This document shows positions 4,414-50,900 of a stretch of 64,000 nucleotides of DNA, piece after piece (position 1 is the first letter of the stretch; every line of letters begins with the position of its first letter). Position numbers and translations under genes: made by a program. Below the pieces are notes generated by a model. That model ran no database searches, was not told the origin of the DNA, and was given only the letters and a program-made list of their open reading frames with translations. This DNA is from a candidate division WOR-3 bacterium (GTDB lineage: Bacteria; Hydrothermota; 32-111): contig JBBFKX010000001.1 in assembly GCA_037481815.1 (NCBI GenBank), positions 1,373-65,372 of the forward strand. Reading direction: 5' to 3'.

Positions 4414-4498
4414 GTCGAAGTGGCGGAATCTGGTAGACGCGTTAGATTCAGGTTCTAATAGGGGCAACTCTGTGGGGGTTCAAATCCCCCCTTCGACA
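4414..4498 (+). tRNA. tRNA-Leu (anticodon CAG), type II with a long variable arm.
   Basis: Manual fold: 7-bp acceptor GTCGAAG/CTTCGAC, D-arm GCG..CGC, anticodon stem TTAGA/TCTAA with loop TTCAGGT (CAG), long variable arm, T-arm GGGGG-TTCAAAT-CCCCC, discriminator A. CCA is not encoded. Confidence 0.85.
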
Positions 4499-4507
4499 GA
4501 GGGGTTT

Positions 4508-7500
4508 ATGGATAAAGAAAAAGAATTTTTGAAAGCATCACTTGAATCCTTTAAAAAATATCTCCCGAAAAGAATTGTGGAAAAGATACTTTCAAATCCT
4601 TATGAGGTAAAAGTTGATTCTGAAAGAAGAGTTGTAACGGTTCTTTTTGGTGACATTTCCGGATTTACCGCATTGTCTGAACGTCTTGATCCTGAGGATG
4701 TTATCAAAGTCATAAACAAATATTTTAAAAAGATGGTCAGAATTGTTGATAAATATGGTGGTGATGTTGATAAATTTATAGGTGATGCAGTTCTTGTTGT
4801 TTTTGGAGCCCCGGTTGCACATTCAGATGACCCTGAGAGAGCAGTAAGGGCTGCACTTGAGATGCAAAAGGAGATGGAAACGATTGAACCTGTTTATGCA
4901 AAAGGTGAGTATGTTAAAGTTACGATGCATATCGGTATCAATACTGGTGAGGTTGTTGCTTTAAATATGGGTGTTGATGACAGGATGGAATATACGATAA
5001 TGGGAGATAATGTTAACCTCACATCACGACTCGAAGGGATTGCAAAATCAGGAGAAATAATAATATCTGAAAATACATATAAACATGTAAAGGATATCTT
5101 TGATTTTGAAAAACTTGAACCTGTTATGGTAAAAGGGAAAAAAGACCCGATACAGATATACAAAGTTTTATCTCTGAAAAAAGGTCTTGTTAGAGAGGAA
5201 GATTTGAAATTTGTTGGGAATGAGGATATAAAAAAATTACCTGAGGTTCTTGTTGAAAAATTTGTAAAAGATAACCAGAATTTTTCCCTTTTTATACAGG
5301 GTGATGAGGGATGTGGAAAGACGAAATATTGTTCGCTTCTTTTTGACATATTTGATAGAAAAAATGTGAAAATCTTTAAGTCAGGCGGTCAAACATTTTT
5401 TCAAAATGTTCCTTTCAAAAAACTCAAAGATTTTGTTGAAGAACAGTTAAAAATAGATGAAAGTGATTCAAATGAAACGATAAAAAACAAAATAGATAAT
5501 TTTCTTTTACCTGATGAAAGGGATGGTTTTTATCTTCTTTTTAACCTTGATGATTCTTATGATGAAAAAGTTTTTAATTTAAAAGTTTTTGAAACCTCAA
5601 AAAGGTTTCTTGAAAAATCGATTGGCTCAGATAAAACTCTTTTTTTAATAGATGATTTTGATCTTTTTGATGATCATTCAAAAAACATATTTTTGAAACT
5701 ATTAAACAATCTTTTAGAAAGAAATAATTTTTCAGTGATCCTTAGTTCAAAAGAAAATATTGATTTTAATTTTACAGATAAAGTTGTTCTGAAGTCACTT
5801 GATTTTGAAAAGTTTAATGAACTTGTTGAAATTAAAAGTTCAAAAAAATTTGACGATGAGGATCTAAAATATCTTTTCAAAAGAAGTGAAGGAAACCCGA
5901 AAAAATTTGTTGAGATCTTGAAATTTTTGAATGATAAAAATTTTCTTGAGGAAAAGGATGGTAAACTTTTCATAAAAGAGGAAGGGAAAAAAGTTATTCC
6001 CGATTCACTCAAATCGATTTTTGTTTCCAAAATAGATAGTTTAAAAGAGAATGATAAAAAAGTGATCCAGTACACTTCACTTTTAGGTTATAGGTTTAAA
6101 AAGAGTGAAGTCACACAATATTTCAATTTTTCTCCAAAAGATATTGATGAGAGTTTTAAAATTTTAACGGACAGAGGTTTTCTGGAATTTTATGATAAGG
6201 AGACATACTATTTTTCATCAGAACTTTTTTATGAATCGGTCTATAATTCATTATCTTTTGATAAAAGAAAAGCGTTACATAAAAACATTGGTGATTATAT
6301 AGAAAAAAAATCTCTTGATAAGAATGAAGAAATTTTAAGAAAACTTTCTTTCCATTATTCAAAAAGTGATGATTTTGAAAAGGCATCCTTCTACCTTGAA
6401 AAGGTTGGAGATTTAGATTCAAAACTTTTCTCATACAAACAATCTGTTGAAAATTACAACAACGCAATAAGTTTACTTCAAAAGGAAAAAAGATTTGACA
6501 GGATGATCCCGGTTGTGATAAAACTTATAAATGTGTTAATCCAGATTGGATCATTCAACAGGGCTTTAGAACTTTTAAAAGAAAAAAGAGAAGTATTTCT
6601 TTACGATGATGAGAGAGAAATAGATTATCTCCTTCTTGAGGGAATGATATACGACCGTATCGGTGATTACAATAGATCAGAAGAGATATACAAAGTAGCA
6701 TTGAAAAAATCTTTAAATTTAAAAAATAAACAGATTTTATCAAAAATCTACAATTCACTTGGAATACTTAAATCTTTTGAAGGGAAATATGATGAATCAC
6801 TTGAATATTATAATCTTTCGCTCGATATAAATATCAAAGAAAACAACAAAAAGGATACAGGTGCATTATATATTAATATAGGTAAAATATATTTAGAGCA
6901 AAACAGGTTTGATGAAGCAAAAAAATATTTTGAACTTTCCTTTGATCTTTTCAAGGAAATTGATGATAAAAAAAAGCAACTTCTTTCACTCATAAATCTT
7001 GGAACAGTTTATGATTTAACTGGGAATTATGATAAGGCAGAGAATCTTTACAAGGAAGCTTTAAAACTTTCATTACTTGTAAAAGATGAGATAGAAACTG
7101 CAAGGATCGAAAATAATCTTGGGACTATAAAATTTTTGACAGGGAAATATGATGATGCAATTACAAGTTATCAAAATTCAATAAAAATATTTGAAAGGTA
7201 TGAAGAGTTGAAGGGACTTTCAGAGATATATTCAAATATGGGGGAGATAAATTTTCTTTTAGGTGAGTTTGAAATATCAAAAGGGTATTATGAAAAAAGT
7301 TTGAACCTGTGTGAAAAAATATCACATAAACACCTTAAAACATACACCTCTCTCAATTATGCTAACCTTCTGTCGTTTTTAGGTTATCTTGAAAAAAGTG
7401 AAGAGATGATTTTAACAAACAAAGATTATATAGAAAAAAACAATCTCGTTGATTTAAAAATTATCTCTTTAAATATACTCGCAAAGATCAACGGCTTGAA

Positions 7501-11636: not shown

Positions 11637-13020
11637 GGAATATTTTCCCCGGGTTAAAAAGGTTTTCAGGATCAAAAAGTTTTTTTATGTTCTTTTGAAT
11701 TTTTATTTCCTGATCGGTGAAAACTAATTTCATAAATTTCTTTTTATAGATACCTATTCCATGCTCTCCGGATAATTTACCACCTAGTTTAACAGAAAGT
11801 TCCATTATCTCTTTTAACACATTCTCAATGTTATTGTCAAAATTTTTATCTTTTTCATCAAGTTTTAAAATGTTTATATGAACATTACCATCACCTGCAT
11901 GACCGAAGGTGATAATCGGTATTCTGTATTTGTCTTCTATCTTATGGATATTTTTTATAAGATCTGGAAGTGAGTTTACTGGAACGACAACATCCTCTCT
12001 TTCCCTTTTGACAGACATCATCACCATCGCGTCATGTAAAGATCTTCTCGCTTTCCAGATTTTTTCCTGAAAATTCTTATCCTCAGCAACGAGTATATCA
12101 ACACACTTTAAATTCGATGAAATTGCATCTATGGTTTCTATATTTCTGTTGACCAGATCTTTTTCAAACCCATCGATTCTCAAAAGGATCTGGGCTTCAC
12201 CTTTCTGTGATGCCATCTGGTTCCCAAGAAAATTTTTTGCCGCTTCGAGTGCTTTTTTTTCCATAAATTCTATCGATGATGGTAATATCCCCGAATGTAT
12301 TATTTTCACAACCGCATTTGTTGCATCATCTATCTTTTCAAAAGCGAGTAAAAGATCAATACTGTATTTTGGTAAAGGTAGAAGGGATAGTGTTATTTCC
12401 GTTATAAACCCAAGTGTTCCTTCTGAACCGATGAAAATATCTTTTAGGTTGTATCCTGTGGCGTTTTTTCTAACCTTCCCACCAAATTTTAAAATTTCAC
12501 CTTCAGGTGTTATAACTTTTATACCTTTAACATAGTCCTTTGTAGTTCCATATTTTACAGCAGAAGGTCCACCTGAATTTTCTGCAACATTACCACCGAT
12601 CGAACAGGAATCGAGAGATGCAGGATCTGGTGGATAGAAAAGATCGAACTCTTCGACACGCCTTTTCAAATCACCTGTAATGATACCTGGTTGTGTTTTT
12701 ACTGTAAAATTTTCTTTGTCGATCTCGATTATCCTGTCTAAAAGTTCAGTTGAAATTATTATTGATGGAACAACAGGTATCGCTCCACCTGAAAGTCCGG
12801 TTCCTTTTCCTCTTGGTACAACAGGTATTTTTTCTTTATAAGAAAATTTTATTATTTCAACAACCTCTTCTTCGTTTTCTGGCAAACATGCAACTAACGG
12901 AACAGAAAATTTTCCCCCGGATTCATCTGTTGAATATTTTTCAAGTAACTGCTCATCGTATATTAATCTGTTTTCAGGTATTATTTTTTTTAACTCGTTA
13001 AAGATTAAGTTTCTTTCCAT
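11626..13020 (-). CDS. glcD: FAD-linked oxidase: glycolate oxidase subunit GlcD / D-lactate dehydrogenase family (FAD-binding PCMH domain).
   Basis: N-terminal FAD-binding motifs (VVPRGKGTGLSGGAIP), central GSEGTLGFITEITL, C-terminal HAGDGNVH motif typical of GlcD / FAD-dependent D-LDH. Confidence 0.75.
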   Translation of the reverse strand: MERNLIFNELKKIIPENRLIYDEQLLEKYSTDESGGKFSVPLVACLPENEEEVVEIIKFSYKEKIPVVPRGKGTGLSGGAIPVVPSIIISTELLDRIIEIDKENFTVKTQPGIITGDLKRRVEEFDLFYPPDPASLDSCSIGGNVAENSGGPSAVKYGTTKDYVKGIKVITPEGEILKFGGKVRKNATGYNLKDIFIGSEGTLGFITEITLSLLPLPKYSIDLLLAFEKIDDATNAVVKIIHSGILPSSIEFMEKKALEAAKNFLGNQMASQKGEAQILLRIDGFEKDLVNRNIETIDAISSNLKCVDILVAEDKNFQEKIWKARRSLHDAMVMMSVKREREDVVVPVNSLPDLIKNIHKIEDKYRIPIITFGHAGDGNVHINILKLDEKDKNFDNNIENVLKEIMELSVKLGGKLSGEHGIGIYKKKFMKLVFTDQEIKIQKNIKKLFDPENLFNPGKIFPDD

Positions 13021-13114
13021 TCTTAAAATATATTGTCTTAAAAATATCTGTCAATAGAAGTTGGTTTATTTACTTTGAATAATTTTTTATATATAATAAA
13101 ACTTTGGAGGTTTT

Positions 13115-16093
13115 ATGGACAGGGAGCAGATAGTTAAAAAATTTGTTCAATCTTATACATCCTACAAAAACAACATTGAAATATTCCATGATCTTTCAAC
13201 TTTCAAAGTCAAAGAGATTTTACTTGTTGCGACATTTTACGATGGTTTCATCCTTGAGGAAGAGGGAAGATTGGCTGAAAGAATTTTTGGGGAGTATCAT
13301 AAACTGTCCTTGCCTGATGCACCGAGAGTCACAAATGCGATAAACGGTGAAGAGGCATGTGAATGGCTGAAAAAAGAACATTTTGATATGGTTATTTTGA
13401 CTATGAGAATCGACGGAATGTCCCCCTATCAGTTGAAAGAAAAGATAAGAAGTGTGAACAGGGATATACCGATAGTTATACTTTTAAACGACAATGGAGA
13501 GATTCCATTGATCAAAGATCAACTCGAAAAGGATAAGGATAAGGATCTTGTTTTTGTATGGAATGGTGATTCAAAAGTTTTTCTTGCGATGATAAAATAT
13601 GTTGAGGACAAAAAGAATATCGAAAGAGATACTCTGATTGGAAATGTGAGAGTGATACTTCTTGTTGAAGATTCGATAAGATACATATCAAGGTACCTTC
13701 CGATACTTTACACTGAGATTCTGAAACAGACTCAGAGGTTGATAATACAGGAAAAACTTGATGATATGAAGAAACTACTCCGTTTGAGAGCAAGACCAAA
13801 AGTGATAATCGCAACGAATTATGAGGATGCGATTTTTTATTTTGAAAAATATCGAGAGAATCTTTTAACTGTGATTTCGGATATGAAATTCCCGAAAAAC
13901 AATGCGACGAACTACAATGCGGGTTATGAATTGATTAAGTTTATAAAAGAAACTATGCCGGAACTGCCCTGTCTTTTACAGTCATTTGAAAAAGAAAATC
14001 TAAAAAAAGCGAAAGAGTTAAAAGTCCCATTCATAAACAAAAACAGTGATAAATTGAGTCAGGAGTTGAGAAACTTTATTTTCAACAACCTTGGATTTGG
14101 TTCTTTCGTTTTTAAAGATAGAAAAGGAAAGGAGATAGTCAAAGCGAGTAACATTGAATCTTTCAGAAAAATTCTTTTGACGATCCCCTCAGAATCTTTA
14201 ATTTTCCATGCCAATTTAAACCAATTCTCAGCATGGCTGATGGCAAGAGGTGAAATCAAGATTGCAAAAAAACTACAAAAGTTAAAAGTTTCAGATTTTA
14301 AATCCATAGAGGACTTAAGAAAATATCTTATAGATATAACACTCGATATTGATAAGGAATCAATAAAGGGAAAAGTTGTAAAATATTCAGATAATCTAAA
14401 AAAAGATGAGGAAGTGATAGTTCAAATCGCTGATGGAACACTTGGTGGCAAGGGAAGAGGTATCGCTTTTGTAAACAATATTCTTCAGAACACTGATATC
14501 TTTAACTCTTTTGAAAATGTAAAAATAACCGTTCCTAAAACGATGCTTATAGGTTCTGAGGAGTTTTCGAACTTTATAGAAAAAAATAATCTTTCTTATT
14601 ACATTTTAAGGGAAAACGATTACAACAAATTACGAAAAAGATTTTTAAAAGGTAAACTTTCAAATGAACTTCTTTATAAGTTAAGGAAAAAACTTAAAAG
14701 TTTTACAAAACCCATTGCGATAAGATCTTCAAGTTTGTTTGAGGATTCAATCTCACAATCATTTTCTGGAGTTTTTGAAACCTATATGCTTCCGAACAAC
14801 GATGATGACTTTGAAAAAAGGATGAAGGATGTTGAGGATGCTATAAAACTTGTTTTTTCTTCCGTATTTTCACCATCAGCGAGGGCATATTTTAATGCGA
14901 TAAATTATAAGATCGAAGAGGAAAAGATGGCGGTGATAATACAGGAAGTTGTTGGACATAATTATGGAAAATACTATTATCCATCTTTTTCAGGTGTTAT
15001 GCAATCGGACAACTATTATCCGATTTCTCATCTTAAAAGGGAGGATGGAATATGTGAGATCGCTGTTGGGCTTGGAAAATATGTTATAGATGGAAACGAT
15101 TCTTTCAGGTTTTGTCCCAAATATCCTGAAATCGATATAAACATAAACAACAAAACACAAAAATTCTTTTATGCTATAAACCTTGGTGATAGAAAAAATT
15201 TTAATCTTATCGAAGGAGACAATTCGACTCTTGAACTTATAGATATAAATGTTGCAAGGGAGAATGGGAGTTTAAACTATATAGGATCTGTACTTGATGT
15301 GTTCAATGGAACTTTGACAGATGATCTTTCAGCAAAAGGTCCACTTGTGATAAACTTTAACTCAATAATTAAATATGAATATTTCCCTCTCTCAAAAATA
15401 TTAAACCAGGTGAGTGCGATTATAAAATTCGCTATTGGATCTCCATGCGAAATAGAGTTTGCTGTTGATCTGAACCCTGATGAAAACCACAGGATGACTT
15501 TTTATATCTTACAGATAAAACCTATAATCAGAAAGAACTCTGAAGTTGATGTTGACATTGAGAGTATCCCAAGAGAAAAAATCCTGTTCTTTTCCGATAA
15601 CGCTATGGGAAACGGCTTTATAGATAACATTAACGATATAATCCTTGTAAATCCAGAAAAGTTTGATAGGATGAAAAGTGTCGAACTTGTGCCCTTGATC
15701 GAGGAGATCAACAGAGATTTTGGGAAAAAGGGAAAGAAATATATTATTGTTGGACCGGGCAGATGGGGAACAAAGGATCCATTTTTAGGAATACCTGTTT
15801 TATGGTCTTCGATTTCAAATGTTAAAGTTATAGTAGAGATCGAGATGAAAGATATGTTGATAGAACCATCACTCGGCTCACACTTTTTTCATAATGTTGT
15901 AACGATGAATGTATTCTATTTAACGATTTTCAGCCATAAAAGATCGGATTCTTTTATCGATTGGGATCTTCTGTTTAAAGAAAAAAATATAAAAAAATTT
16001 AACGATATAATATTACACTTTGAATTTGAAAAACCTTTAAAAGTTTTGATTGATGGAAAGAGAGGAAAAGGCGCCATAATCAAAACCGATTAA
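13115..16093 (+). CDS. Multidomain protein: N-terminal receiver-like domains fused to a PEP-utilising / pyruvate-phosphate-dikinase N-terminal (ATP-grasp nucleotide-binding) domain.
   Basis: Receiver-like segments (ILLVEDSIRY...). A central region similar to the PEP synthase / PPDK N-terminal domain (IADGTLGGKGRGIAFVNNIL, IAIRSSSLFEDS, FSGVFETYM). RBS GGAGG upstream. Confidence 0.55.
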   Translation: MDREQIVKKFVQSYTSYKNNIEIFHDLSTFKVKEILLVATFYDGFILEEEGRLAERIFGEYHKLSLPDAPRVTNAINGEEACEWLKKEHFDMVILTMRIDGMSPYQLKEKIRSVNRDIPIVILLNDNGEIPLIKDQLEKDKDKDLVFVWNGDSKVFLAMIKYVEDKKNIERDTLIGNVRVILLVEDSIRYISRYLPILYTEILKQTQRLIIQEKLDDMKKLLRLRARPKVIIATNYEDAIFYFEKYRENLLTVISDMKFPKNNATNYNAGYELIKFIKETMPELPCLLQSFEKENLKKAKELKVPFINKNSDKLSQELRNFIFNNLGFGSFVFKDRKGKEIVKASNIESFRKILLTIPSESLIFHANLNQFSAWLMARGEIKIAKKLQKLKVSDFKSIEDLRKYLIDITLDIDKESIKGKVVKYSDNLKKDEEVIVQIADGTLGGKGRGIAFVNNILQNTDIFNSFENVKITVPKTMLIGSEEFSNFIEKNNLSYYILRENDYNKLRKRFLKGKLSNELLYKLRKKLKSFTKPIAIRSSSLFEDSISQSFSGVFETYMLPNNDDDFEKRMKDVEDAIKLVFSSVFSPSARAYFNAINYKIEEEKMAVIIQEVVGHNYGKYYYPSFSGVMQSDNYYPISHLKREDGICEIAVGLGKYVIDGNDSFRFCPKYPEIDININNKTQKFFYAINLGDRKNFNLIEGDNSTLELIDINVARENGSLNYIGSVLDVFNGTLTDDLSAKGPLVINFNSIIKYEYFPLSKILNQVSAIIKFAIGSPCEIEFAVDLNPDENHRMTFYILQIKPIIRKNSEVDVDIESIPREKILFFSDNAMGNGFIDNINDIILVNPEKFDRMKSVELVPLIEEINRDFGKKGKKYIIVGPGRWGTKDPFLGIPVLWSSISNVKVIVEIEMKDMLIEPSLGSHFFHNVVTMNVFYLTIFSHKRSDSFIDWDLLFKEKNIKKFNDIILHFEFEKPLKVLIDGKRGKGAIIKTD

Positions 16094-40946: not shown

Positions 40947-41384
40947 ATGGCTAACATAAAAAAAGTTTGTGTTGAAAGTTTTTTAAAAGAAAATTTTACA
41001 GTCGAGTCAGATATAAGAGGCCATAAAATTTTTGTTGACCAGCCAGAAAATATGGGTGGAGTTGACAAAGGTCCAACTCCACTCGAATACCTTTTTGTTT
41101 CATTGGGTGGTTGTATCGCATCGATAGCAAGAATAGTCGCAAATCAAAAAAGGTTGAACATAAAAAATTTGAAAGTGGTTGTGAGTGGTGATATCGATAC
41201 TGATATTCTTCTTGGGAAATCGAATGATAAAAGGCCGGGATTTTTAAAGATCACTGTAAAAGTTTCTTTTGATAGTGATATGACGAAAGAGGAAAAGGAG
41301 AAATTTTTAAAGGAAGTTGATTCAAGATGTCCGATATCTGACAACATTTTAAATTCAACTCCAGTCGAGATAATCTTAGAGTGA
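40947..41384 (+). CDS. OsmC/Ohr-family peroxiredoxin-like protein.
   Basis: OsmC-like pattern GGVDKGPTPLEYLFVSLGGCIA...C-terminal CPIS. 145 aa. Confidence 0.65.
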   Translation: MANIKKVCVESFLKENFTVESDIRGHKIFVDQPENMGGVDKGPTPLEYLFVSLGGCIASIARIVANQKRLNIKNLKVVVSGDIDTDILLGKSNDKRPGFLKITVKVSFDSDMTKEEKEKFLKEVDSRCPISDNILNSTPVEIILE

Positions 41385-42304
41385 ATCTAAAAAATTTTCT
41401 TCTTATCGTTTTAACTTTTTTTCTTCTTTGTTCATGTACAAAAGAGAATATGACAAAAGAGAATAATTTTCGAAAATTAACACCTGAAGAGGAGTTTGTA
41501 ATAGTTCATAAGGGAACCGAAAAACCTTTTTCAGGTGAATATAATGATTTTTTTGAAAAGGGGACATATCACTGTAAAAGGTGTAATGCTCCCCTTTTTA
41601 GATCAGAGTCAAAATTCAGGTCAACATGTGGATGGCCAAGTTTTGATGATCAGATAGAAGGTGCTGTAAAAAGAGTCCCTGATAAAGATGGAGTCAGGAT
41701 TGAGATTCAATGTGCAAACTGTGGAGCACATCTTGGGCATGTTTTTGAAGGGGAAGGGTTTACAGAAAAGAATGTAAGATACTGTGTCAACTCAATATCA
41801 CTTGTTTTTGTACCCGATAAAAATTTGAAAAAAGCGTATTTTGCAGGAGGATGTTTCTGGGGTGTTGAGTTTCTTTTTGAAAAAAAAGAAGGTGTTGTTG
41901 ATGTTGTTTCAGGTTATATGGGAGGAAATGTTGAAAATCCTTCCTACGAGCAGGTTTGTACAGGTAAAACAGGTCATTATGAAACTGTTGAAGTTACCTA
42001 TGATGCAACGAAAACAAATTTTGAAGAACTTGTGAAATATTTTTTTGAGATACATGATTTCTCACAGGAGAATGGACAGGGCCCAGATATCGGAGAGCAA
42101 TACAAATCTGTAATATTTTACAATGATGAAAATGAAAAAAATCTTGCTTTAAAAACCATCGAAACTTTAAAATCGAAAGGTTATAAGGTTGCAACAAAGT
42201 TAAAACCTGTCAGCAAATTTTTTATTGCTGAAGAATATCATCAAAACTATTATGAAAAAAATAAAAAGAAACCTTATTGTCATTTTCATAGAAAAATTTT
42301 TTGA
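41381..42304 (+). CDS. msrAB: Bifunctional methionine sulfoxide reductase MsrB-MsrA fusion with a lipoprotein signal.
   Basis: MsrB Zn/catalytic motifs CKRCNAPLF, CGWPSF, CANCGAHLGHVF, followed by the MsrA motif FAGGCFWGVE. N-terminal LLCSC lipobox. Confidence 0.85.
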   Translation: MNLKNFLLIVLTFFLLCSCTKENMTKENNFRKLTPEEEFVIVHKGTEKPFSGEYNDFFEKGTYHCKRCNAPLFRSESKFRSTCGWPSFDDQIEGAVKRVPDKDGVRIEIQCANCGAHLGHVFEGEGFTEKNVRYCVNSISLVFVPDKNLKKAYFAGGCFWGVEFLFEKKEGVVDVVSGYMGGNVENPSYEQVCTGKTGHYETVEVTYDATKTNFEELVKYFFEIHDFSQENGQGPDIGEQYKSVIFYNDENEKNLALKTIETLKSKGYKVATKLKPVSKFFIAEEYHQNYYEKNKKKPYCHFHRKIF

Positions 42305-42409
42305 ATTAAAAGATTCTAAATTTATTTTTAATTTACTGCATTTAAAAAAGTAGAAATTTTTTTAATAAGTAGGGATTCAAAAAGAATTTGAAATGAAAAA
42401 AGTCAAAAA

Positions 42410-42429
42410 GTCAAGCACCGTCCCCGAAA
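42410..42429. repeat. Left copy of a ~29-bp imperfect inverted repeat flanking the R-M / DarTG island (core GTCAAGCACCGTCCCCGAAA).
   Basis: Reverse complement TTTCGGGGACGGTGCTTGACtttttgact matches the right copy TTTTGGGGACGGTGCTTGACaatttgaca at 48874-48902: core 19 of 20 nt, extended about 25 of 29. Confidence 0.75.
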
Positions 42430-42574
42430 TATACTTATAATTTTTTTTATCCAGAATTTTTACATAGAAATATTGTTGAAAAGTAAAAATATTTTTAATA
42501 TAATAAAACTAAAAATGAAAAGTAAAAAAACATTTTAAACTATTGATTAGAATGAATTTTTTGGATGAAATCAA

Positions 42575-45271
42575 ATGAAATTAACTTTTGAGTCAAATTT
42601 AGATTTTCAATTAAAGGCAGTCAATTCTACAGTGAATCTTTTTGAGGGACAACAAAGGGGTGCCGGTACTGTTAAGTTTACCTTTAATAAAAATGATCCT
42701 GAAGAATTATTTTCGGGAATAAATAGTATTGGTAATCGTCTTGCAATCTCAAATGAACAAATTTATAAAAATCTTTCCGAAATACAGAAAAATAATGAAA
42801 TAAGTGTTGTCACAGAAGAAGAATTTAAAGATAATGGATTGAATTTTACCGTAGAAATGGAAACCGGTACGGGTAAAACTTATGTGTACCTTCGAACTAT
42901 TTACGAACTTAATAAAAAATATGGCTTTAAAAAATTCGTCATCGTCGTACCTTCTATTGCTATCCGGGAAGGAGTTTTGAAAAACCTTGAAATTACCTTT
43001 GAACATTTTCAAAATCTTTACGATAATGTGCCCGTAAATTATTATGTTTATGATAGCAGTAAAGTTTCTTCTTTGCGTTCTTTTGCAACCAATAACAGCA
43101 TTGAGATTCTGGTAATCAATATTGATTCCTTTGCTAAAGATGAAAATATCATCAATCGTCCGAATGATAGATTAAGCGGTCTGGAACCTATAAAATTTAT
43201 TCAAGCCACAAATCCCATTGTGATAGTGGATGAGCCGCAAAATATGGAGACTGAAAAAAGAAAAAATGCGATTAACAGTTTAAATCCACTATGCACGCTT
43301 CGTTATTCAGCAACTCATAAGAATTTGTACAACCTTGTCTATAGCCTAAATCCAGTAAAAGCATATGATCTTGGTCTTGTAAAACAAATTGAAGTGGACT
43401 CCGTAGTGGAAGAAAATGCGCATAATGATGCTTACATTGCCGTTGAAGAAATCAAATCTCAGAAAACAAAAATAACAGCACGGCTATCTATCTATTCAAG
43501 CGTACCCAATGGAATTATAAAAAAAAGCATTACCGTAAAAGTGGGTGATGACCTTTTTCAATTGTCCGGGAATTATCAACCATACAAAGATAGATTCATA
43601 GTTGAAGAAATAGATGTAGCCAATCAAACCATTACCTTTTCCAATGGTATCACTTTGAATAGCGGCTCATCACGCGGCGGAATGGCCGATGAAATTATGC
43701 ATTTTCAGATACAACGAACCATAGAAGAACATCTCAAAAAAGAACTAAAATTATACAAACAAGGCATCAAAATACTTTCACTATTTTTTATTGATCGTGT
43801 TGCCAGTTATCGCTACTACGATGAACAGGGAAATCCACAAAAAGGAAAAATTGCACAATGGTTTGAGGAGGAATATAGAAATAGTATAAATAGAAATGAA
43901 TTTTTAGAACTAAAAAAACTTTTTCATCCTGATGATAAAATAGACATAGAAAAAATCCATAACGGCTATTTTTCGCAAGACAAAAAAGGAAGACTCAAGG
44001 ATACTCGCGGAGAAAGTGAAGACGACCTTAATACCTATGATTTAATAATGAAAGATAAAGAAAAATTGCTAGATATACAAACACCATTACGTTTTATTTT
44101 TTCTCATTCTGCTTTGCGTGAGGGCTGGGACAACCCGAATGTATTTCAGATCTGTACACTAAACGAAACAAAATCAGAACTCAAAAAACGGCAGGAAATT
44201 GGTAGAGGACTCAGACTTGCAGTCAATCAAAACGGACAAAGGATTTATGATAAAAACATCAATCGATTGACAGTAATTGCCAATGAATCGTATGAATCTT
44301 TTGCCAAACAATTACAAACCGAGATTGAAGAAGAGTGTGGTGTAAGCTTTAAAGGTAGAATCAAAAACAAACGCGAACGAATTGCCATCAAATACCGCAA
44401 AGGTTTTGAAGTCGATCCAAAATTCCTTGAAATATGGGAAAAAATTAAATATAAAACTCGATACAGAGTGGAATATCAAACCACAGAATTAATAAATAAT
44501 GCTGCTGAAGAGATTCAATTTTTGCCACCGACTCCGTCTCCATCGATCAAAGCCACAAAAGTAAAAATGGATATTACCGACGAAGGTATCGATACATCGT
44601 TAGTGGGCGAAAGACGGGAAAAATATGGAAATAAACATTTATGGCTATTACCTGATATGATTGAATATATTCAGCAAAAAACAGAACTGACAAGAAATAC
44701 TATCAAAGAAATTCTTGATAAAGCCAATCGCTGGAACAATTTTTTTGTCAATCCACAATATTTTTCTGATCAATGTGTGTCTGTTATCAAAAGAACACTT
44801 GCAGAATTTTTAGTAGATGGCATCAAGTACGAAAAAATTAGCGGACAATACTATGAAATGCGTCTTTTTGAAATGCAAGAACTGGAAACCTATCTGGATA
44901 CTTTTACCTTCCAAGTGAACAACAAAGAAAAAACCATTTATGAAGAATATATTCCTCTGGACTCAAGCGTAGAAAGTCAATTTGCAAAAGATTGCGAAAC
45001 AAGTGAAAATGTGGAGTTCTATTTCAAACTTCCCGGTTGGTTCAAAATTCCAACACCGATTGGTTATTACAACCCCGACTGGGCAGTAGTTTTGAAAAAC
45101 GAAAAGAAAATCTACTTTGTAGCCGAAACCAAAGACACAGGTGGCGATAAAATCGATATCTCAAAACTTCATCCCGATGAACAGATGAAAATCAAATGTG
45201 GCGAAAAACATTATAAAGTGTTTAATGGTGTGGAATATAAAGTAGTGAAAAGGGTGAGTGATTTGATATGA
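42575..45271 (+). CDS. res: Type III restriction enzyme Res subunit (SF2 helicase plus C-terminal PD-(D/E)xK nuclease).
   Basis: Helicase motif I METGTGKTY, motif II VIVDEPQNM, motif VI QEIGRGLR. C-terminal nuclease core YNPDWAVV...YFVAETK. 898 aa. Confidence 0.8.
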   Translation: MKLTFESNLDFQLKAVNSTVNLFEGQQRGAGTVKFTFNKNDPEELFSGINSIGNRLAISNEQIYKNLSEIQKNNEISVVTEEEFKDNGLNFTVEMETGTGKTYVYLRTIYELNKKYGFKKFVIVVPSIAIREGVLKNLEITFEHFQNLYDNVPVNYYVYDSSKVSSLRSFATNNSIEILVINIDSFAKDENIINRPNDRLSGLEPIKFIQATNPIVIVDEPQNMETEKRKNAINSLNPLCTLRYSATHKNLYNLVYSLNPVKAYDLGLVKQIEVDSVVEENAHNDAYIAVEEIKSQKTKITARLSIYSSVPNGIIKKSITVKVGDDLFQLSGNYQPYKDRFIVEEIDVANQTITFSNGITLNSGSSRGGMADEIMHFQIQRTIEEHLKKELKLYKQGIKILSLFFIDRVASYRYYDEQGNPQKGKIAQWFEEEYRNSINRNEFLELKKLFHPDDKIDIEKIHNGYFSQDKKGRLKDTRGESEDDLNTYDLIMKDKEKLLDIQTPLRFIFSHSALREGWDNPNVFQICTLNETKSELKKRQEIGRGLRLAVNQNGQRIYDKNINRLTVIANESYESFAKQLQTEIEEECGVSFKGRIKNKRERIAIKYRKGFEVDPKFLEIWEKIKYKTRYRVEYQTTELINNAAEEIQFLPPTPSPSIKATKVKMDITDEGIDTSLVGERREKYGNKHLWLLPDMIEYIQQKTELTRNTIKEILDKANRWNNFFVNPQYFSDQCVSVIKRTLAEFLVDGIKYEKISGQYYEMRLFEMQELETYLDTFTFQVNNKEKTIYEEYIPLDSSVESQFAKDCETSENVEFYFKLPGWFKIPTPIGYYNPDWAVVLKNEKKIYFVAETKDTGGDKIDISKLHPDEQMKIKCGEKHYKVFNGVEYKVVKRVSDLI

Positions 45272-45918
45272 ATAGCCAATTAGAAGATATAAAATTATAC
45301 AGAATGACTCACATAGAAAACATACCACATATTTTACAACATGGTATTGCGCATAAAAATTCAAAGTTTGCTAATGCAGAATATAAAAATATTGGGGACT
45401 TTTCATTGATATCAGCGCGTGAAAGAAAAACAATAAATATTACAAATGGTAATAATAATATCATAAAGACAATAATCTTAGGAGATTTCATCCCTTTTTA
45501 TTTCAATGTAAAAATGCCCATGCTTTATGTTATCCAGCATGGAGGCAACTTTACCACAAAAACTTCATCATCGGACATAGTTTACCTGGTATGTTCCCTT
45601 TATAAAATAGTTCAATTAGATAATATTGAATGCTACTTTTGTGATGGGCATGCCACTGATAACTTAACAACTTTTTATGATAGTAGTTTTATTAAGCAAA
45701 TAGGAAATATTATTGATTGGACGGCAGTCACATCTCAATACTGGGGCGGTGAAAATAATTTAGAGGTAAAAAGAAAAAAACAGGCTGAATTTTTAGTAAA
45801 GGGAGATTTACCTGTTGAAGTAATTGAATATTTTATTTGCTATGATGAGATAGCAGAGGAAAAACTAAAAAAATTTGGTGTTAAATCAATCAGGATAGAT
45901 AAAAATGCCTATTATTGA
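45268..45918 (+). CDS. darT: DarT (DUF4433) ssDNA thymidine ADP-ribosyltransferase toxin.
   Basis: LYRMTHIENIPHILQHGI, PFYFNVKMPMLYVIQHGG, CDGHA, and the catalytic-glutamate motif KQAEFLV closely match the characterised DarT family (e.g. Thermus aquaticus DarT). ATGA overlap with the res stop. Confidence 0.85.
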   Translation: MNSQLEDIKLYRMTHIENIPHILQHGIAHKNSKFANAEYKNIGDFSLISARERKTINITNGNNNIIKTIILGDFIPFYFNVKMPMLYVIQHGGNFTTKTSSSDIVYLVCSLYKIVQLDNIECYFCDGHATDNLTTFYDSSFIKQIGNIIDWTAVTSQYWGGENNLEVKRKKQAEFLVKGDLPVEVIEYFICYDEIAEEKLKKFGVKSIRIDKNAYY

Positions 45919-45929
45919 GGAGGTTGATT

Positions 45930-46982
45930 ATGATAAAATTCACAACAGGAAATATTCTTGAAAGCGAGGCACAGGCTCTGGTTAATACTGTTAACACCGT
46001 TGGAGTTATGGGAAAAGGCATTGCTTTGCAATTCAAAAAATCCTTCCCGGATAATTTTAATGCCTATGCAAAAGCCTGCAAAAGTAAGGAAATTGAAATT
46101 GGTAAAATGTTTGTATTCAAAGAAAATACCCTTTCGGGCGAAAAAATCATTATCAACTTCCCCACCAAAAAAGATTGGCGAAAACCCTCTGAATACGAAT
46201 ATATTGAAAAAGGACTGGACGACCTGATTCGTGTTATCAAAGAATATAATATCAAAAGTATTGCTATCCCCCCTTTAGGCGCTGGAAGTGGCGGACTCTT
46301 GTGGGAAAAGGTAAAAACTATTATTCAAAATAAATTAGGCAGTTTAGATATAGATATTTTCGTTTATGAACCCTCAAGAGAAATACAGGAAAAACTAAAA
46401 AAAGAAAGAGTAAAACTAACAGATGCAAGGGCTTTGATGCTGTATGTGCTTTATGAACTGGTACGACAGGGCGAATATGTATCCGAATTCTCTGCTGAAA
46501 AAGTTTGTTATTTCCTTCAAAAATTTGGTGCGGAGGAATATTTCAAACTAACATATAAACCCAACTTTTATGGTCCTTATTCCGGGAAGGTTAGATATGT
46601 GCTTAACTATTTAAATGGTAGTTACATCATGGGATATAGCGATATAACTAAAAAACCTTTTGAACCCCTTTTACTTATAGCCGATCGATACGATGAAGTG
46701 AACCGATACATACAATCCAATAAAAAATTACAAAATATTGCTCAAAAAACCATACAATTTCTTGATGGTTTTTTTTCCGATTTTGCACTTGAACTATTGT
46801 CCACAGTTGACTGGATAATGAAAGAAAAACAAACAGATAATTTTGATGTAATTAAACAAGAAATCACAAACTGGAACTACAAAAAACGAAGTAAATTCTC
46901 TAATGACAAATACATTCAAATAGCCATTGAACATATAAAAAATTTTCATAAAAGGATAACCCTATGGACGGACAAAACTTAG
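45930..46982 (+). CDS. darG: DarG macrodomain antitoxin (N-terminal macro domain plus C-terminal DarT-binding domain).
   Basis: MIKFTTGNILESEAQALVNTVNTVGVMGKGIALQFKK...INFPTKKDWRKPS...IAIPPLGAGSGGL is a canonical DarG macrodomain. GAGGAGG RBS. Starts 11 nt after the darT stop. Confidence 0.85.
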   Translation: MIKFTTGNILESEAQALVNTVNTVGVMGKGIALQFKKSFPDNFNAYAKACKSKEIEIGKMFVFKENTLSGEKIIINFPTKKDWRKPSEYEYIEKGLDDLIRVIKEYNIKSIAIPPLGAGSGGLLWEKVKTIIQNKLGSLDIDIFVYEPSREIQEKLKKERVKLTDARALMLYVLYELVRQGEYVSEFSAEKVCYFLQKFGAEEYFKLTYKPNFYGPYSGKVRYVLNYLNGSYIMGYSDITKKPFEPLLLIADRYDEVNRYIQSNKKLQNIAQKTIQFLDGFFSDFALELLSTVDWIMKEKQTDNFDVIKQEITNWNYKKRSKFSNDKYIQIAIEHIKNFHKRITLWTDKT

Positions 46983-48829
46983 ACATAAAAAAAGACATTC
47001 TCAACAAACTCAAAGAACTTATTCCCAATTGTTTTACCGAAGGTAAAATCGATTGGGAAAAACTCAAAGTATTTTTGGAAGATAACATTGAATTTCAAAA
47101 CGAACGCTATCACCTTAATTGGGCTGGCAAAACCGATGCCTTTCGTTTGTTGCAGTCGCCTACATACAAAACATTAAAACCCTGCCGTGAAGAAAGCGTT
47201 AACTTTGACGAAACCGAAAATCTCTTTATAGAAGGCGATAATCTGGAAGTGCTGAAAATTTTGCAAAAATCCTACTTTGGTAAAATCAAAATGATATACA
47301 TAGACCCGCCTTACAATACGGGAAATGATTTTATCTACAAAGATGATTATACAGAAACCCTTGCCGGATACAAAAGAAAAGTTGGCGATGTGGACGAAAA
47401 CGGCAATGTTACCCGTGCAGAACTTTTCCGTAATACAAAAGAAAACGGGCAATACCATTCTAATTGGCTTACTATGATGTACCCCCGACTTTTTCTTGCC
47501 CGCAACCTATTGCGTGATGATGGCGTAATCTTTGTAAGCATCGACGACAACGAAGTCCACAACCTGCGACTTATGATGGATGAAATTTTTGGAGAGGAGA
47601 ATTTTATTGTTAATGCTATTTGGGAAAAAGTTAAAATTAGAAAAAATTCTGCGGTCTGGTTTTCTGATTCTCATGATCATATCCTCATTTATGTTAAAAA
47701 TAAAGAATTATCAAAAAGAAATTTATTACCAAGAATAGATACTAGAATGTATAAAAATCCAGACAATGATCCAAGAGGACCATGGATACCAATACCTATA
47801 CATGCTAACCATAAATATGATGCAAATTATAAAATTGTAAAGCCTAATGGTATAGTTTTAGAAAGACCCAAAAATAACTATTGGAGGTTAAGTGAAAAAA
47901 AATTTAATGAATATGTAAAAGATAATAGAATATGGTGGGGCGAAGGATCTAGTTATCCTATGATTAAAAAGTTTTTATCAGAGGTTCAACAAGGGTTAGT
48001 TCCCAAAAGTATATTTTATTATGATGAAGTTGGAGGTAATCCTCATGGTGATGCGGAATTAAAAAAACTATTTGAAGGTAAAAAAATTTTTGAAAATCCA
48101 AAATGTATTAAATTAATAAAAACATTTTTACAAATTTCCACTTCTCCCTCCGACCTTATCCTTGACTTCTTCGCCGGCTCCGGCACCACTGCCCATGCGG
48201 TGATGGAACTCAACAAAGAAGATGGGGGAAATCGTAAGTTTATCCTTGTCCAACTACCCGAACCCACAGCCCCCGATAGTGAAGCATTCAAAGCAGGCTA
48301 CAAAACCATTGCCGATATTGCCAAAGAACGCATCCGCCGTGCCGCAAAGAAAATTCAGGGTGAACTCGATGAAGAAAAAAAGAAAAAAGGAGAAGAACTG
48401 CCATTAGAACCAACCCAACAAAAAAAATTAGACCTTGGTTTCAAAGTATTTAAACTGGATGAAAGCAACTTCAAACAATGGCGCCCCTTTGTGCCTGAGA
48501 GTGAAGAAGAGATAAAACAAGCTGTACTGGATTTTACCGAAAATATCAAGTTTGAAGCTACTGTGGAAAACATTCTTTATGAACTGATACTCAAAAACGG
48601 CAAAAAACTTACAGACGAAATTGAAAAGAAAAATGGATATTATGTTGTAAACAACAATGAACTTGTTTTGCTACTGGAAAGTGTGGAAAAATCGGTAATA
48701 GACGAAGTATTATTGCTTAAACCTCAAAAGGTAGTGGCACTGGATAAGTTATTTAATGGCAATGACCAATTAAAAACAAATACTGTGTTGCAATTTAGAG
48801 ATGAAGGAATAGAGTTTAAGAGTGTATGA
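46964..48829 (+). CDS. mod: Type III R-M Mod subunit: N6-adenine DNA methyltransferase (beta class).
   Basis: Motif IV IYIDPPYNTGNDF precedes motif I DFFAGSGTTAHAV (beta-class order). Central AT-rich variable (TRD) region. Overlaps the darG end by 19 nt. Confidence 0.85.
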   Translation: MDGQNLDIKKDILNKLKELIPNCFTEGKIDWEKLKVFLEDNIEFQNERYHLNWAGKTDAFRLLQSPTYKTLKPCREESVNFDETENLFIEGDNLEVLKILQKSYFGKIKMIYIDPPYNTGNDFIYKDDYTETLAGYKRKVGDVDENGNVTRAELFRNTKENGQYHSNWLTMMYPRLFLARNLLRDDGVIFVSIDDNEVHNLRLMMDEIFGEENFIVNAIWEKVKIRKNSAVWFSDSHDHILIYVKNKELSKRNLLPRIDTRMYKNPDNDPRGPWIPIPIHANHKYDANYKIVKPNGIVLERPKNNYWRLSEKKFNEYVKDNRIWWGEGSSYPMIKKFLSEVQQGLVPKSIFYYDEVGGNPHGDAELKKLFEGKKIFENPKCIKLIKTFLQISTSPSDLILDFFAGSGTTAHAVMELNKEDGGNRKFILVQLPEPTAPDSEAFKAGYKTIADIAKERIRRAAKKIQGELDEEKKKKGEELPLEPTQQKKLDLGFKVFKLDESNFKQWRPFVPESEEEIKQAVLDFTENIKFEATVENILYELILKNGKKLTDEIEKKNGYYVVNNNELVLLLESVEKSVIDEVLLLKPQKVVALDKLFNGNDQLKTNTVLQFRDEGIEFKSV

Positions 48830-48873
48830 CGATGAGAAAAAAAATAAATAAAAAGACCATTACATTTATAGAA

Positions 48874-48902
48874 TTTTGGGGACGGTGCTTGACAATTTGA
48901 CA
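48874..48902. repeat. Right copy of the inverted repeat flanking the island (TTTTGGGGACGGTGCTTGACAATTTGACA); it also contains -35-like TTGACA hexamers.
   Basis: See the left copy. It is followed by TTGACA-N18-TAAAAT (48897-48926), a plausible outward-facing promoter toward the carbamoyltransferase operon. Confidence 0.7.
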
Positions 48903-49082
48903 TTTTTTTACAAGTTATATTAAAATTTAAACTTACATTTAAAATAAAAAATTTTTTCTTTTCATTTTATTAAGCAAAAATGTAAAGTATTTTTGAATTA
49001 ATGAAAAATCAAAATTAACAAAATTTTTAATATTGATAAAACTTTATTTTTTGTTAAAATAAAAAGTTAAAATTAAGGAGGT

Positions 49083-50900
49083 TTGATGTATATACTTGGA
49101 TTAAATATAGGGCATGATGCTACAGCGACACTTTTAAAAGATGGAAGGATTATTGCTGCAGTAGCAGAGGAAAGGATTTCAAGGGTAAAATTTCATTTCG
49201 GGTTTCCATATGGTTCTATAAAGGAATGTATTAGAATAGCAAAAATAGATGGAAAAGATATAAAAAATGTTGTTCTATCTTTTGAAAATGATATTTTGAG
49301 AAGTCCCTTTCATTATACTGATCTTATAGTGAAAAGAAGTGGAACAATTGACCCATCAAATGAGATAGATAATAGAAAAAAGTTTGATACTATAAAAGAA
49401 ATATTGTACAGAAAAATTATTGGAGAAAAAAAGTACTGGAAACTTGCATCAGAATATGCTAAAAAATCTATAACTGATGCTTTGAAAAAGTGTGGTTTGG
49501 TTGAATTTACACTTGAATCAGTTAATCATCATCTTTGTCATGCTGCTTCATGTTATTATGAAGGTGGGAAAAATAAAGCACTGATTATAACTATGGATGG
49601 AGCAGGTGATGGACTTTCTGCAACAGTTTCAATTGGAGAAGATGGTAAGATAAAAAGGATTCTTGAAGTAGAGGATATATATTCTGTTGGAAGGTTTTAT
49701 TCAGCAATAACAAAATTTCTTGGATTTAAAAGAAATAGACATGAAGGGAAGATAACAGGCCTTGCAGCATACGGTAATCCTAATAAACTTTACGATAAGT
49801 TCAAACAAATGATAGATATAACCCCAGATGGGAAAAGTTTTTATTCACCACTTGCTGGTAATCTAAAAGGAGATTCTTTGAGGTTAAAGCAGTTTAAAGA
49901 TTTTTTGAAAGGAAAATATTATGGACATAATTATACAAACCTTTATCTTGAATTTTTGAAGAAAAATTGTTCAAATGAATCAAAAGAGGATATTGCAGCA
50001 GCAGCACAGAAATTAACAGAAGATTTAGTTGTAAAATTTATAGAACCACATATAAAAAATACAGGCATAAAAGATATAGTTCTTGCAGGTGGTCTTTTCT
50101 CAAACGTAAAAGTGAATCAGAGGGTTCTTGAAATTGAAGGTGTTGAATCAGTTTTTATCCATCCAAATATGGGTGATGGTGGAACATCGACAGGAGCATG
50201 TTATATTAAATGGGCAGAAGAGGTTGAAAAGAAAGGAGAAAAATTTTTACCATTTACCATTGATAATGTTTACTATGGGCCTGAATATAATGATGATGAA
50301 ATTTTGAAAGTTTTAAAAGATTTTGAAAGTAAAGTTGAATTTAGAAAAAGTGATAATATCGTTGAAGAGACAGCGCAAATGATAAAAGATAAAGTTGTTG
50401 TTGGCTGGTTTCAAGGGAGAATGGAATATGGTCCGAGGGCTCTTGGAAACCGTTCAATTCTATTTGATCCTACTGACAAAAAGATAAACGATTGGTTAAA
50501 CAAAAGATTAAAAAGAACAGAGTTTATGCCTTTTGCTCCATCCTGTATTTATGAGGAAGCAAAAAATGTTTTTGAGAATTTCGAAAAGGGAAGTTATCCT
50601 TCTTATTTTATGACTATAACTTTTAATGTAAAAGAGGAATGGAGAAAGAAAATTGAAGCTGTTAACCATGTAGATAATACCGCAAGGCCTCAGACTGTCA
50701 AAGAAAATCAAAATCCTTTATACTATAAACTTTTGAAAAGGTATAAAGAATTGACAGGACTTCCGCTTTTTGTTAATACAAGTTTTAATATGCATGAAGA
50801 ACCTATACTTTGTTCACCTGTTGATGCTGTGAGATCGCTCCTTAATAACTGTGTTGATATTCTCGTTATAGGTAATTACATAGTCAAGCAGAAAAAATAA
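49083..50900 (+). CDS. NodU/CmcH-family carbamoyltransferase.
   Basis: N-terminal ILGLNIGHDATATLLKDGRIIAAVAEERISRVK (ASKHA / YgjD-like fold of Carbam_trans_N). C-terminal Carbam_trans_C. 605 aa. AAGGAGG RBS. Confidence 0.8.
   Translation: MMYILGLNIGHDATATLLKDGRIIAAVAEERISRVKFHFGFPYGSIKECIRIAKIDGKDIKNVVLSFENDILRSPFHYTDLIVKRSGTIDPSNEIDNRKKFDTIKEILYRKIIGEKKYWKLASEYAKKSITDALKKCGLVEFTLESVNHHLCHAASCYYEGGKNKALIITMDGAGDGLSATVSIGEDGKIKRILEVEDIYSVGRFYSAITKFLGFKRNRHEGKITGLAAYGNPNKLYDKFKQMIDITPDGKSFYSPLAGNLKGDSLRLKQFKDFLKGKYYGHNYTNLYLEFLKKNCSNESKEDIAAAAQKLTEDLVVKFIEPHIKNTGIKDIVLAGGLFSNVKVNQRVLEIEGVESVFIHPNMGDGGTSTGACYIKWAEEVEKKGEKFLPFTIDNVYYGPEYNDDEILKVLKDFESKVEFRKSDNIVEETAQMIKDKVVVGWFQGRMEYGPRALGNRSILFDPTDKKINDWLNKRLKRTEFMPFAPSCIYEEAKNVFENFEKGSYPSYFMTITFNVKEEWRKKIEAVNHVDNTARPQTVKENQNPLYYKLLKRYKELTGLPLFVNTSFNMHEEPILCSPVDAVRSLLNNCVDILVIGNYIVKQKK

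Follow-up and report, generated by a model that had tools for sequence, protein, structure and literature searches.

In Type III restriction-modification (R-M) systems, Mod methylates host sites and Res cuts unmethylated incoming DNA, and the classical gene order is an adjacent mod-res pair. A different mode of defence is provided by DarT, which ADP-ribosylates single-stranded DNA (ssDNA), aborting infection once DarG stops restraining it. A functional defence island in which DarTG2 is embedded in a Type I R-M operon has been published (PMC12255303). In this RRDM island of enteropathogenic E. coli the DarT/DarG pair lies between the R-M subunit genes (hsdS/hsdR) and is co-transcribed with them, the island is horizontally acquired, and the slot between the R-M genes carries alternative cargo in other genomes (PMC12255303). 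A second group of described systems comprises the REP and REPIN sequences, short extragenic repeats present in several to many copies per genome, whose inverted doublets fold into long hairpins and whose partner, the REP-associated tyrosine transposase (RAYT), is an HUH/Y1 enzyme encoded by a gene bracketed by inverted copies (Bertels & Rainey, 2011, PMC3116915; Bertels et al., 2017, PMC5581495). Here we analyse a window of 64,000 nt from a candidate division WOR-3 bacterium in which elements reminiscent of both groups meet: a Type III R-M system with an embedded DarTG pair stands between two inverted copies of a REP-like repeat. With a probability that we put at roughly 0.6, this segment is a horizontally acquired defence island that is framed by solo REP-like copies and has spread by homologous recombination, the repeats not being its transposon ends. 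Sequences compared with the window are referred to by L numbers, and its main features are as follows.

42305..49001, no strand: inserted foreign segment of ~6.7 kb, delimited by empty sites and GC skew; right boundary uncertain, about 49001-49018
42396..42430, minus strand: left REP-like repeat, GGGG tip towards res and tail TTGACTTTTTGACT towards msrAB (nhmmer E=2e-10)
48873..48907, plus strand: right REP-like repeat, GGGG tip towards mod and tail TTGACAATTTGACA towards the carbamoyltransferase gene (nhmmer E=3e-11)
42575..45271, plus strand: res, Type III restriction endonuclease/helicase subunit with an 898-aa product (PF04851, ResIII; PF00270, DEAD; PF19778, RE_endonuc)
45268..45918, plus strand: darT, predicted ssDNA ADP-ribosyltransferase toxin (PF14487, E=1e-42; NF048013, 159.8 bits, cutoff 150; PADLOC DarT)
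45915..46982, plus strand: darG, predicted macrodomain antitoxin, a DNA ADP-ribosyl glycohydrolase (PF01661; NF048014, 411.5 bits, cutoff 250; PADLOC DarG, 408 bits)
46964..48829, plus strand: mod, Type III DNA methyltransferase (PF01555, N6_N4_Mtase; PADLOC MTase_III, 689 bits, full length)
41381..42304, plus strand: msrAB, left chromosomal flank (PF01625 and PF01641)
49083..50900, plus strand: carbamoyltransferase gene, right chromosomal flank (PF02543 and PF16861)

The repeats enclose four overlapping reading frames, res-darT-darG-mod, and nothing else, as the initial annotation had it and as domain, NCBIfam and PADLOC matches confirm. Since neighbouring frames overlap, the four genes are read as a single operon. 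The Res product combines SF2 helicase-type domains with a C-terminal endonuclease domain, and scores 1014 bits against PADLOC REase_III and 344.6 bits against NF012027, under the equivalog cutoff of 564. The darT frame precedes and overlaps darG, and both products exceed their NCBIfam equivalog cutoffs. The window departs from the classical adjacent order of mod and res, as two genes stand between the subunits. This arrangement is a Type III counterpart of the Type I island with embedded DarTG2, sharing with it the co-transcribed DarT/DarG pair between R-M subunit genes, the horizontal acquisition and the variable content of the slot. It differs in its host system, which is Type III (res ... 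mod), in having no RptR-like regulator gene, and in being flanked by REP-like singlets where the RRDM island has insertion sequence elements (PMC12255303).

That the segment is horizontally acquired DNA with a clear empty-site polymorphism can be seen in relatives, in the interval between msrAB and the carbamoyltransferase gene where the initial annotation had placed a possible empty site. Located via carbamoyltransferase orthologues (88-89% identity) that were traced to their own contigs, this interval proved to be empty in L118/L119 and in L120-L122. The surrounding region is syntenic in these genomes (RecG, DUF4837, deaminase, VWA, (OsmC), MsrAB, carbamoyltransferase, glycosyltransferase, NHL), only 68-71 nt separate msrAB from the carbamoyltransferase start codon (ATG), and no copy of the repeat motif occurs within ~20 kb of the empty site in any of them. 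Alignable sequence in the window resumes at about 49008-49018 with the native promoter and ribosome-binding-site stretch of the empty sites, and the insertion point is a few bases from the msrAB stop codon. The inserted DNA therefore runs from about 42305 to 49001-49018, which places the repeats inside it and not at its termini: it extends ~86-91 nt beyond the left repeat and ~82-110 nt beyond the right one. GC skew breaks at the island as well: it is about 0 over 43-49 kb and +0.2 to +0.3 in the flanks. The long coding-free spacers that had been noted at about 270 and 250 bp measure 270 nt on the left (42305-42574) and 253 nt on the right (48830-49082), and neither matches an Rfam family. The window's reading frames and a domain search reveal no recombinase or transposase gene either between the repeats or adjoining the segment, which bears out the earlier statement that the repeats enclose no mobility gene. 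The sole RNA gene detected in the window, a tRNA-Leu(CAG) at 4414-4498, is distant from the island and unrelated to the insertion site.

Two short direct repeats lie close to the ends of the inserted DNA.

42298..42309, plus strand: direct repeat TTTTTGAATTAA (12 nt), left copy, which overlaps the stop codon of msrAB; possible target duplication, or else microhomology
48990..49001, plus strand: right copy, partner of 42298..42309

An exact direct repeat of this length arises by chance in ~11% of shuffles of the AT-rich zones, so that TTTTTGAATTAA is not significant alone (P about 0.11) and is no more than a candidate target-site duplication. Two other ideas about the insertion were discarded. 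The empty site is not a terminator hairpin that received the island in its loop, since the empty sites hold no copy of the motif. Nor are the insertion ends the complete ~125-145-nt halves of a long repeat doublet of the kind found in L023 (2243-2528), as would result if a circle had been opened in the middle of the doublet. Past the first ~36 nt, the window arms resemble each other no better than shuffled AT-rich sequences do, which counts against such an origin, and the outer spacers have no significant inverted similarity (local score 24 vs 21.9 +/- 4.3).

How the island has moved more recently is best judged from a second species, L212 (GCA_030017465.1), in which the interval between msrAB and the carbamoyltransferase gene likewise holds the island and the two repeats. 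In the flanks, identity to L212 is 82-85% for L118, ~78% for the window and 71-73% for the outgroup L120. The closest relative of L212 is thus L118, which is empty, and it follows that presence of the island does not track the core-gene tree. Between the window and L212, nucleotide identity is 96% over 42185-42395, rises to 100% from the outer edge of the left repeat (42396) to the end of res (45270), is 93% at the start of mod and returns to 99-100% over 48200-49043, save for a 29-nt indel at 48842-48870. The two ends of mod are 93-100% identical overall, whereas its middle (47600-48100 in the window, 15098-15707 in L212), presumably the target-recognition or specificity region, is unalignable, which, next to a 100%-identical res, points to a recent change of specificity. 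The indel itself, located between the mod stop codon and the right repeat, corresponds to the stretch AAAATAAATAAAAAGACCATTACATTTAT, present in the window and missing from the otherwise identical L212. In a four-way alignment the last ~120 nt of L212 msrAB, co-transferred between the lineages of the window and L212, resemble the window and not L118, which puts a crossover inside msrAB, by homologous recombination for which the repeats are not needed. The comparison indicates that recent interspecies spread has occurred by homologous recombination in the flanking core genes. In these respects the locus behaves like described defence-island hotspots, where close relatives differ in whether a given site is occupied, islands resemble each other across species much more than the core genes do, crossovers fall in a flanking gene and the cargo is mosaic. 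It departs from them in that the island in the window has its own pair of dispersed repeats and in that a break between shared and variable DNA at a second locus (L044/L213, below) falls at a repeat tip and not inside a core gene.

The repeats themselves are present much as the initial annotation had described them, as ~29-bp inverted repeats with a perfect 16-nt core, although the repeat finder makes the arms slightly longer, 35 nt at 42396-42430 and 48873-48907 with 89% complementarity. The core, GGGGACGGTGCTTGAC, occupies 42410-42425 on the minus strand and 48878-48893 on the plus strand. Allowing up to 3 mismatches, it matches twice in the 64 kb against 0.06 times expected from shuffles, and searching the window with a profile of 87 family members adds no degenerate copy to these two. 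Both copies direct their GGGG ends into the island and their TTGAC-N4-TGAC tails outward. The left tail belongs to one sub-variant (TTGACTTTTTGACT) and the right tail to another (TTGACAATTTGACA), and among the sampled copies such sub-variants are largely genome-specific. Taken as ssDNA, the left copy is unstructured by itself (dG about 0).

These sequences are not private to the island. A scan with the 16-mer, taking one genome per species, returned at least 115 stretches, about one third of them chance matches in genes of GC-rich organisms. Among the matches listed, 87 family copies in 67 loci were recognised in WOR-3, TA06, Aminicenantes, Stahlbacteria and allied metagenome-assembled genomes (MAGs), with the extended form GGGGACGGTGCT-TGACnnnT-TGACnnnT-TTT. 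Individual assemblies hold at least 3-15 exact 16-mers (at least 15 in STB_17, 8 in DPZ-2, 6 in UBA6260 and 5 in TA06 32_111), a density in the sampled genomes of roughly one exact copy per 100-400 kb, and the adjoining genes are mostly housekeeping. The suggestion that the repeats are ends belonging to this cassette has therefore largely fallen, the motif being a dispersed multi-copy repeat in WOR-3, TA06 and Aminicenantes. Similarity between non-orthologous copies begins 0-4 nt from the GGGG tip and extends to the tail side, which identifies the tip as the outer end of the element. Twelve inverted pairs are spaced within 1.5 kb, and all 12 have their tips out and none has them in. Three of these surround RAYT genes, and 9 of the 12 are spaced 57-270 nt and form long hairpin doublets. 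For the doublet in L005 the folding energy is -39.1 kcal/mol (z = -12.9), whereas single copies, with 0 to -0.6 kcal/mol, do not surpass shuffles, and the unit is not palindromic. The pair in the window, with its tips in and 6.4 kb apart, is not a hairpin doublet.

A gene for a protein of 308-322 aa stands between inverted copies that are ~980-1020 nt apart in L081, L103 and L016. The protein matches PF01797 (Y1_Tnp) with E = 1e-8 and the REP-associated tyrosine transposase model NF047646 with 53-56 bits, under the cutoff of 80, and its translations show an HUH motif (HYH) and a Y..LNPVR..L...W.WSS signature. The same gene also adjoins a repeat copy in L101, L036, L034 and L065, and no RAYT is found in the window.

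L081 1437-2363 and L016 6638-7606, and also in L103: RAYT-like gene bracketed by repeats
L110 7447-7536, and also in L015, L020, L057, L038 and L073: short tandem arrays of the repeat or its head

Taken together, the doublet hairpins, the bracketed RAYT-like gene and the sharp GGGG tip establish that the repeat is an element of the REP/REPIN type and the partner of a RAYT-like HUH/Y1 transposase. As in described systems, the repeat is short, extragenic and present in several to many copies per genome, and in the genomes of relatives it forms inverted doublets that fold into long hairpins and brackets the RAYT-like gene. The exact 16-mer counts resemble those of RAYT groups 1, 4 and 5, for which 12-31 repeat occurrences are reported (PMC3116915; PMC5581495). 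The family is unlike those systems in that its single unit is non-palindromic and has no fold of its own, in its tandem 8-mer tail that co-varies between genomes and in its identical 16-nt core across several phyla. Its protein, about 310 aa long and scoring 55.9 bits against the NCBIfam RayT cutoff of 80, also differs from a typical RAYT, and the window holds two singlets only and no RAYT.

Several side observations concern the family as a whole. The tail consists of an 8-mer repeated in tandem, with variable positions that change in concert between genomes, and appears as TGACATTT-TGACATTT, TGACTCTG-TGACTCTG, TGACTTTG-TGACTTTG, TGACAATT-TGACAATT or TGACTTCT-TGACTTCT (L003-L115). The short tandem arrays, which are built of the repeat or its GGGGACGG head with a spacing of 30-44 nt, are found in Aminicenantes and some other MAGs. 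A second motif, GGGGTCAGGTCT, lies near copies in L067, L073 and L093, and a one-mismatch variant, GAGGGTCAGGTCT, is found in L110. A family-type copy with the tail variant TTGACTCTGTGACTTT is present in a Thermoplasmatota archaeon MAG, CSMAG_2770 (L047 1057), and the same tail stands on one copy in a bacterial MAG from the same study, CSMAG_2763 (L035 1059); this sharing may reflect a binning artefact or cross-domain transfer. A viral origin of the motif was dismissed, the viral matches being coding-sequence coincidences, as was a resemblance to sigma-54 promoters (GG-N10-GC), given that the motif reads TTGA and not TTGC.

The repeat is also met beside defence genes at other loci. In the WOR-3 MAGs L085 (DPZ-2) and L213 (JBDRZT) it lies 150-165 nt upstream of a 77%-identical res, in the same orientation as in the window, at a locus with a different context (parAB, M42 peptidases, bactofilin and a SpaA-like gene). 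L044 (SRBZ-2) is 100% identical to L213 through the flank and the repeat, and the two diverge 3 nt past the GGGG tip, into hsdM-fic-hsdS with a short Y1-like gene in L044 and into res-GmrSD in L213. The Y1-like gene (L044 2831-3421, minus strand) directly follows hsdS and encodes a 196-aa Y1/HUH transposase-like protein with HFH and Y..NNP motifs and a weak PF01797 match, of a subfamily distinct from the 310-aa RAYT-like protein that flanks the repeat. Between L053 and L055, too, synteny breaks exactly at the repeat, beside non-defence DNA (a 23S rRNA gene). In L055 (2400-4600) the repeat stands ~550 nt upstream of this 23S rRNA gene, which contains a LAGLIDADG homing-endonuclease open reading frame (4582-5085). 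The motif is not an intrinsic part of res-X-mod modules, an idea that was rejected when it was found to be absent from L116 and L214-L217, whose Res proteins are 75-86% identical to that of the window, and from 80 metagenome loci with Res 37-67% identical. Homology of L214 and L215 to the window begins at about the start of res and continues in L215 to the mod stop codon, the L214 contig ending shortly after res. Nor is an enrichment of defence genes at the tips claimed: they make up 7 of 72 tip-side genes and 0 of 48 tail-side genes, but 3 of the 7 were brought in by the res search and the neighbours of the family are mostly housekeeping.

One reading of these loci is that REP-like singlets with inward GGGG tips mark exchangeable defence-island slots in WOR-3, whole R-M islands being swapped at the tips through recombination across the perfectly conserved 35-nt repeat or through cleavage and joining by a RAYT-type HUH transposase; we regard this as quite unlikely. 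A related possibility, which we consider unlikely, is that of a non-autonomous mobile cassette, in which a RAYT-like Y1 transposase encoded elsewhere would recognise both copies and move the enclosed DNA or exchange it at the GGGG tips. Such a cassette would fit the absence of the repeats from empty-site genomes, from which it follows that they came with the island, their status as the cognate sequence of a RAYT-like transposase, the sharp boundary at the tip, the L044/L213 divergence past an identical repeat and the recurrence of the same repeat-res junction in another context in L085/L213. It would also recall composite or non-autonomous transposons and miniature inverted-repeat transposable elements, in which two inverted copies of a transposase-family target likewise frame cargo that includes no transposase and relatives likewise show an empty site. 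The geometry of the window, however, is the reverse of that of a working element. With its tips in, where 12 of 12 close inverted pairs, those flanking RAYT genes included, have them out, the island lies topologically outside the element and not in its cargo position, and carriage as REPIN/RAYT-element cargo was rejected on this ground. Unlike the ends of such transposons, the repeats lie ~90-110 nt inside the inserted DNA, and the 12-nt direct repeat is not a significant target duplication. Moreover, the two window copies differ in tail sub-variant, whereas the arms of working doublets match each other, no RAYT is encoded in the window, and the sole traceable transfer, that involving L212, crossed over inside msrAB by homologous recombination. 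Of the mobile cassette that the initial annotation had proposed, the acquired DNA therefore stands, on the strength of the empty sites and the GC skew, while the repeats as its own ends do not, being dispersed, subterminal and tips-in.

Two other explanations leave mobility aside. The repeats might be regulatory modules, outward promoters or regulator-binding sites that insulate the island or drive its neighbours, and for this the promoter-like sites of the region are relevant.

42476..42504, plus strand: promoter-like site of the res-darT-darG-mod operon, TTGAAA-17-TATAAT, 11/12, by consensus match only
48897..48926, plus strand: outward promoter-like site in or next to the right repeat, TTGACA-18-TAAAAT, 11/12, by consensus match
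49033..49060, plus strand: native promoter-like site of the carbamoyltransferase operon, TTGATA-16-TAAAAT with TG, conserved in empty-site genomes

The site at the right repeat reads towards the carbamoyltransferase operon. At RAYT loci the start codon of the RAYT gene is found ~25 nt downstream of the repeat, the first TTGACA is followed after 16 nt by a -10-like hexamer, and the tandem TGACnnnT-TGACnnnT tail resembles a protein-binding array. The left copy, by contrast, lacks a -10 partner and is directed, in antisense, at the 3' end of msrAB, with the same true in L085 and L213, and counts of promoter-like sites do not exceed those of shuffles. The carbamoyltransferase gene retains its own conserved promoter, as it does in the empty-site genomes, and hairpin doublets would set two such promoters head-on. 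The earlier view of the repeats as outward regulatory elements is accordingly a weak one that suits the right copy and fails for the left, and we judge it decidedly improbable. The inverted arrangement of two near-identical 35-nt sequences could also suggest a site-specific inversion switch in which crossover at the repeats turns the 6.4-kb segment round, but this arrangement is its sole support and we find the idea scarcely credible. There is no recombinase gene in or beside the segment, the operon promoter lies inside it so that flipping would switch nothing obvious (L085 has TTGACA-17-TATAAT at the equivalent position upstream of res), and the dispersed family lacks the dyad-symmetric core typical of invertase or tyrosine-recombinase sites. 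The segment has the same orientation in the window and L212 at the msrAB site, and L085 and L213 share one repeat-to-res orientation at their own locus, so the inversion module of the initial annotation is not borne out.

The reading that we prefer, an acquired island spread by homologous recombination, has difficulties of its own. The original insertion at the msrAB stop codon has no explained mechanism under it. If placement were random, it is very unlikely that two copies of so sparse a repeat would frame exactly one island by chance, and the shared position and orientation of the repeat at res in L085/L213, despite another chromosomal context, suggests that the link between repeat and island within WOR-3 is non-accidental; yet L214 and L215, whose res genes are closer to that of the window than those of L085/L213, have no repeat. 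The other repeat copies and the RAYT status of the source genome are, furthermore, seen from the 64-kb window alone, to which all counts for that genome refer. As the comparisons show, the island was inserted a few bases from the msrAB stop codon and later moved between species of the genus by homologous recombination in the flanking core genes. Recombination within res and mod has exchanged the cargo between the two genes as well as the central part of Mod, in which its specificity presumably resides. On the preferred reading the repeats would have arrived with the island from a repeat-rich WOR-3 donor in which they already framed it. Their role would at most be that of portable, perfectly conserved stretches of homology, ~35 nt long, or of breakpoints for the exchange of neighbouring DNA, and the right copy may add an outward promoter. 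More generally, REP-like singlets may serve as recombination breakpoints.

The cargo of the island bears on Type III R-M systems at large. The res-X-mod order recurs in L116, L212 and L215-L217, and the slot between the two genes contains DarTG in the window and in L216 and an OLD-family gene in three other loci.

L212 12721-14475, L215 12719-14440 and L217 4173-5894: OLD-family AAA_15/TOPRIM gene between res and mod

In L213 a GmrSD (GmrSD_N) gene at 12723-13744 follows res, the contig ending before any mod. The alternation of DarTG and OLD-family genes between res and mod marks the slot as a cargo site, and Type III R-M systems in general seem to accept cargo between their subunit genes. As further variants of gene order, a Chryseobacterium plasmid (L218) has mod-PDDEXK-res, and in the non-WOR-3 genome L116 (11037-19561) the res-darT-darG-mod block is part of a larger island in which it is followed by a C5 DNA methylase, an HATPase_c_3 protein, an HhH-GPD glycosylase and a second N6_N4 methylase, all of defence type.

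On current evidence, then, this is an ordinary acquired island that spreads by homologous recombination, and its gene content is another case of guilt-by-embedding. The slot between res and mod, with its DarTG or OLD-family nuclease and, in one genome, GmrSD after res, is a useful spot in which to find new defence genes. What is worth pursuing is the repeat family itself, together with the hint that its tips coincide with island junctions. The flanking repeats reveal a REPIN/RAYT-like system, with a non-palindromic unit and a cross-phylum core, in the little-studied phyla WOR-3, TA06 and Aminicenantes. Were the tips preferred junctions of island exchange, as L044 and L213 hint, REP-type repeats would be tied to island turnover and RAYTs would have a testable cellular role; a domesticated pair of repeat and transposase would then gain a part in the turnover of defence islands.

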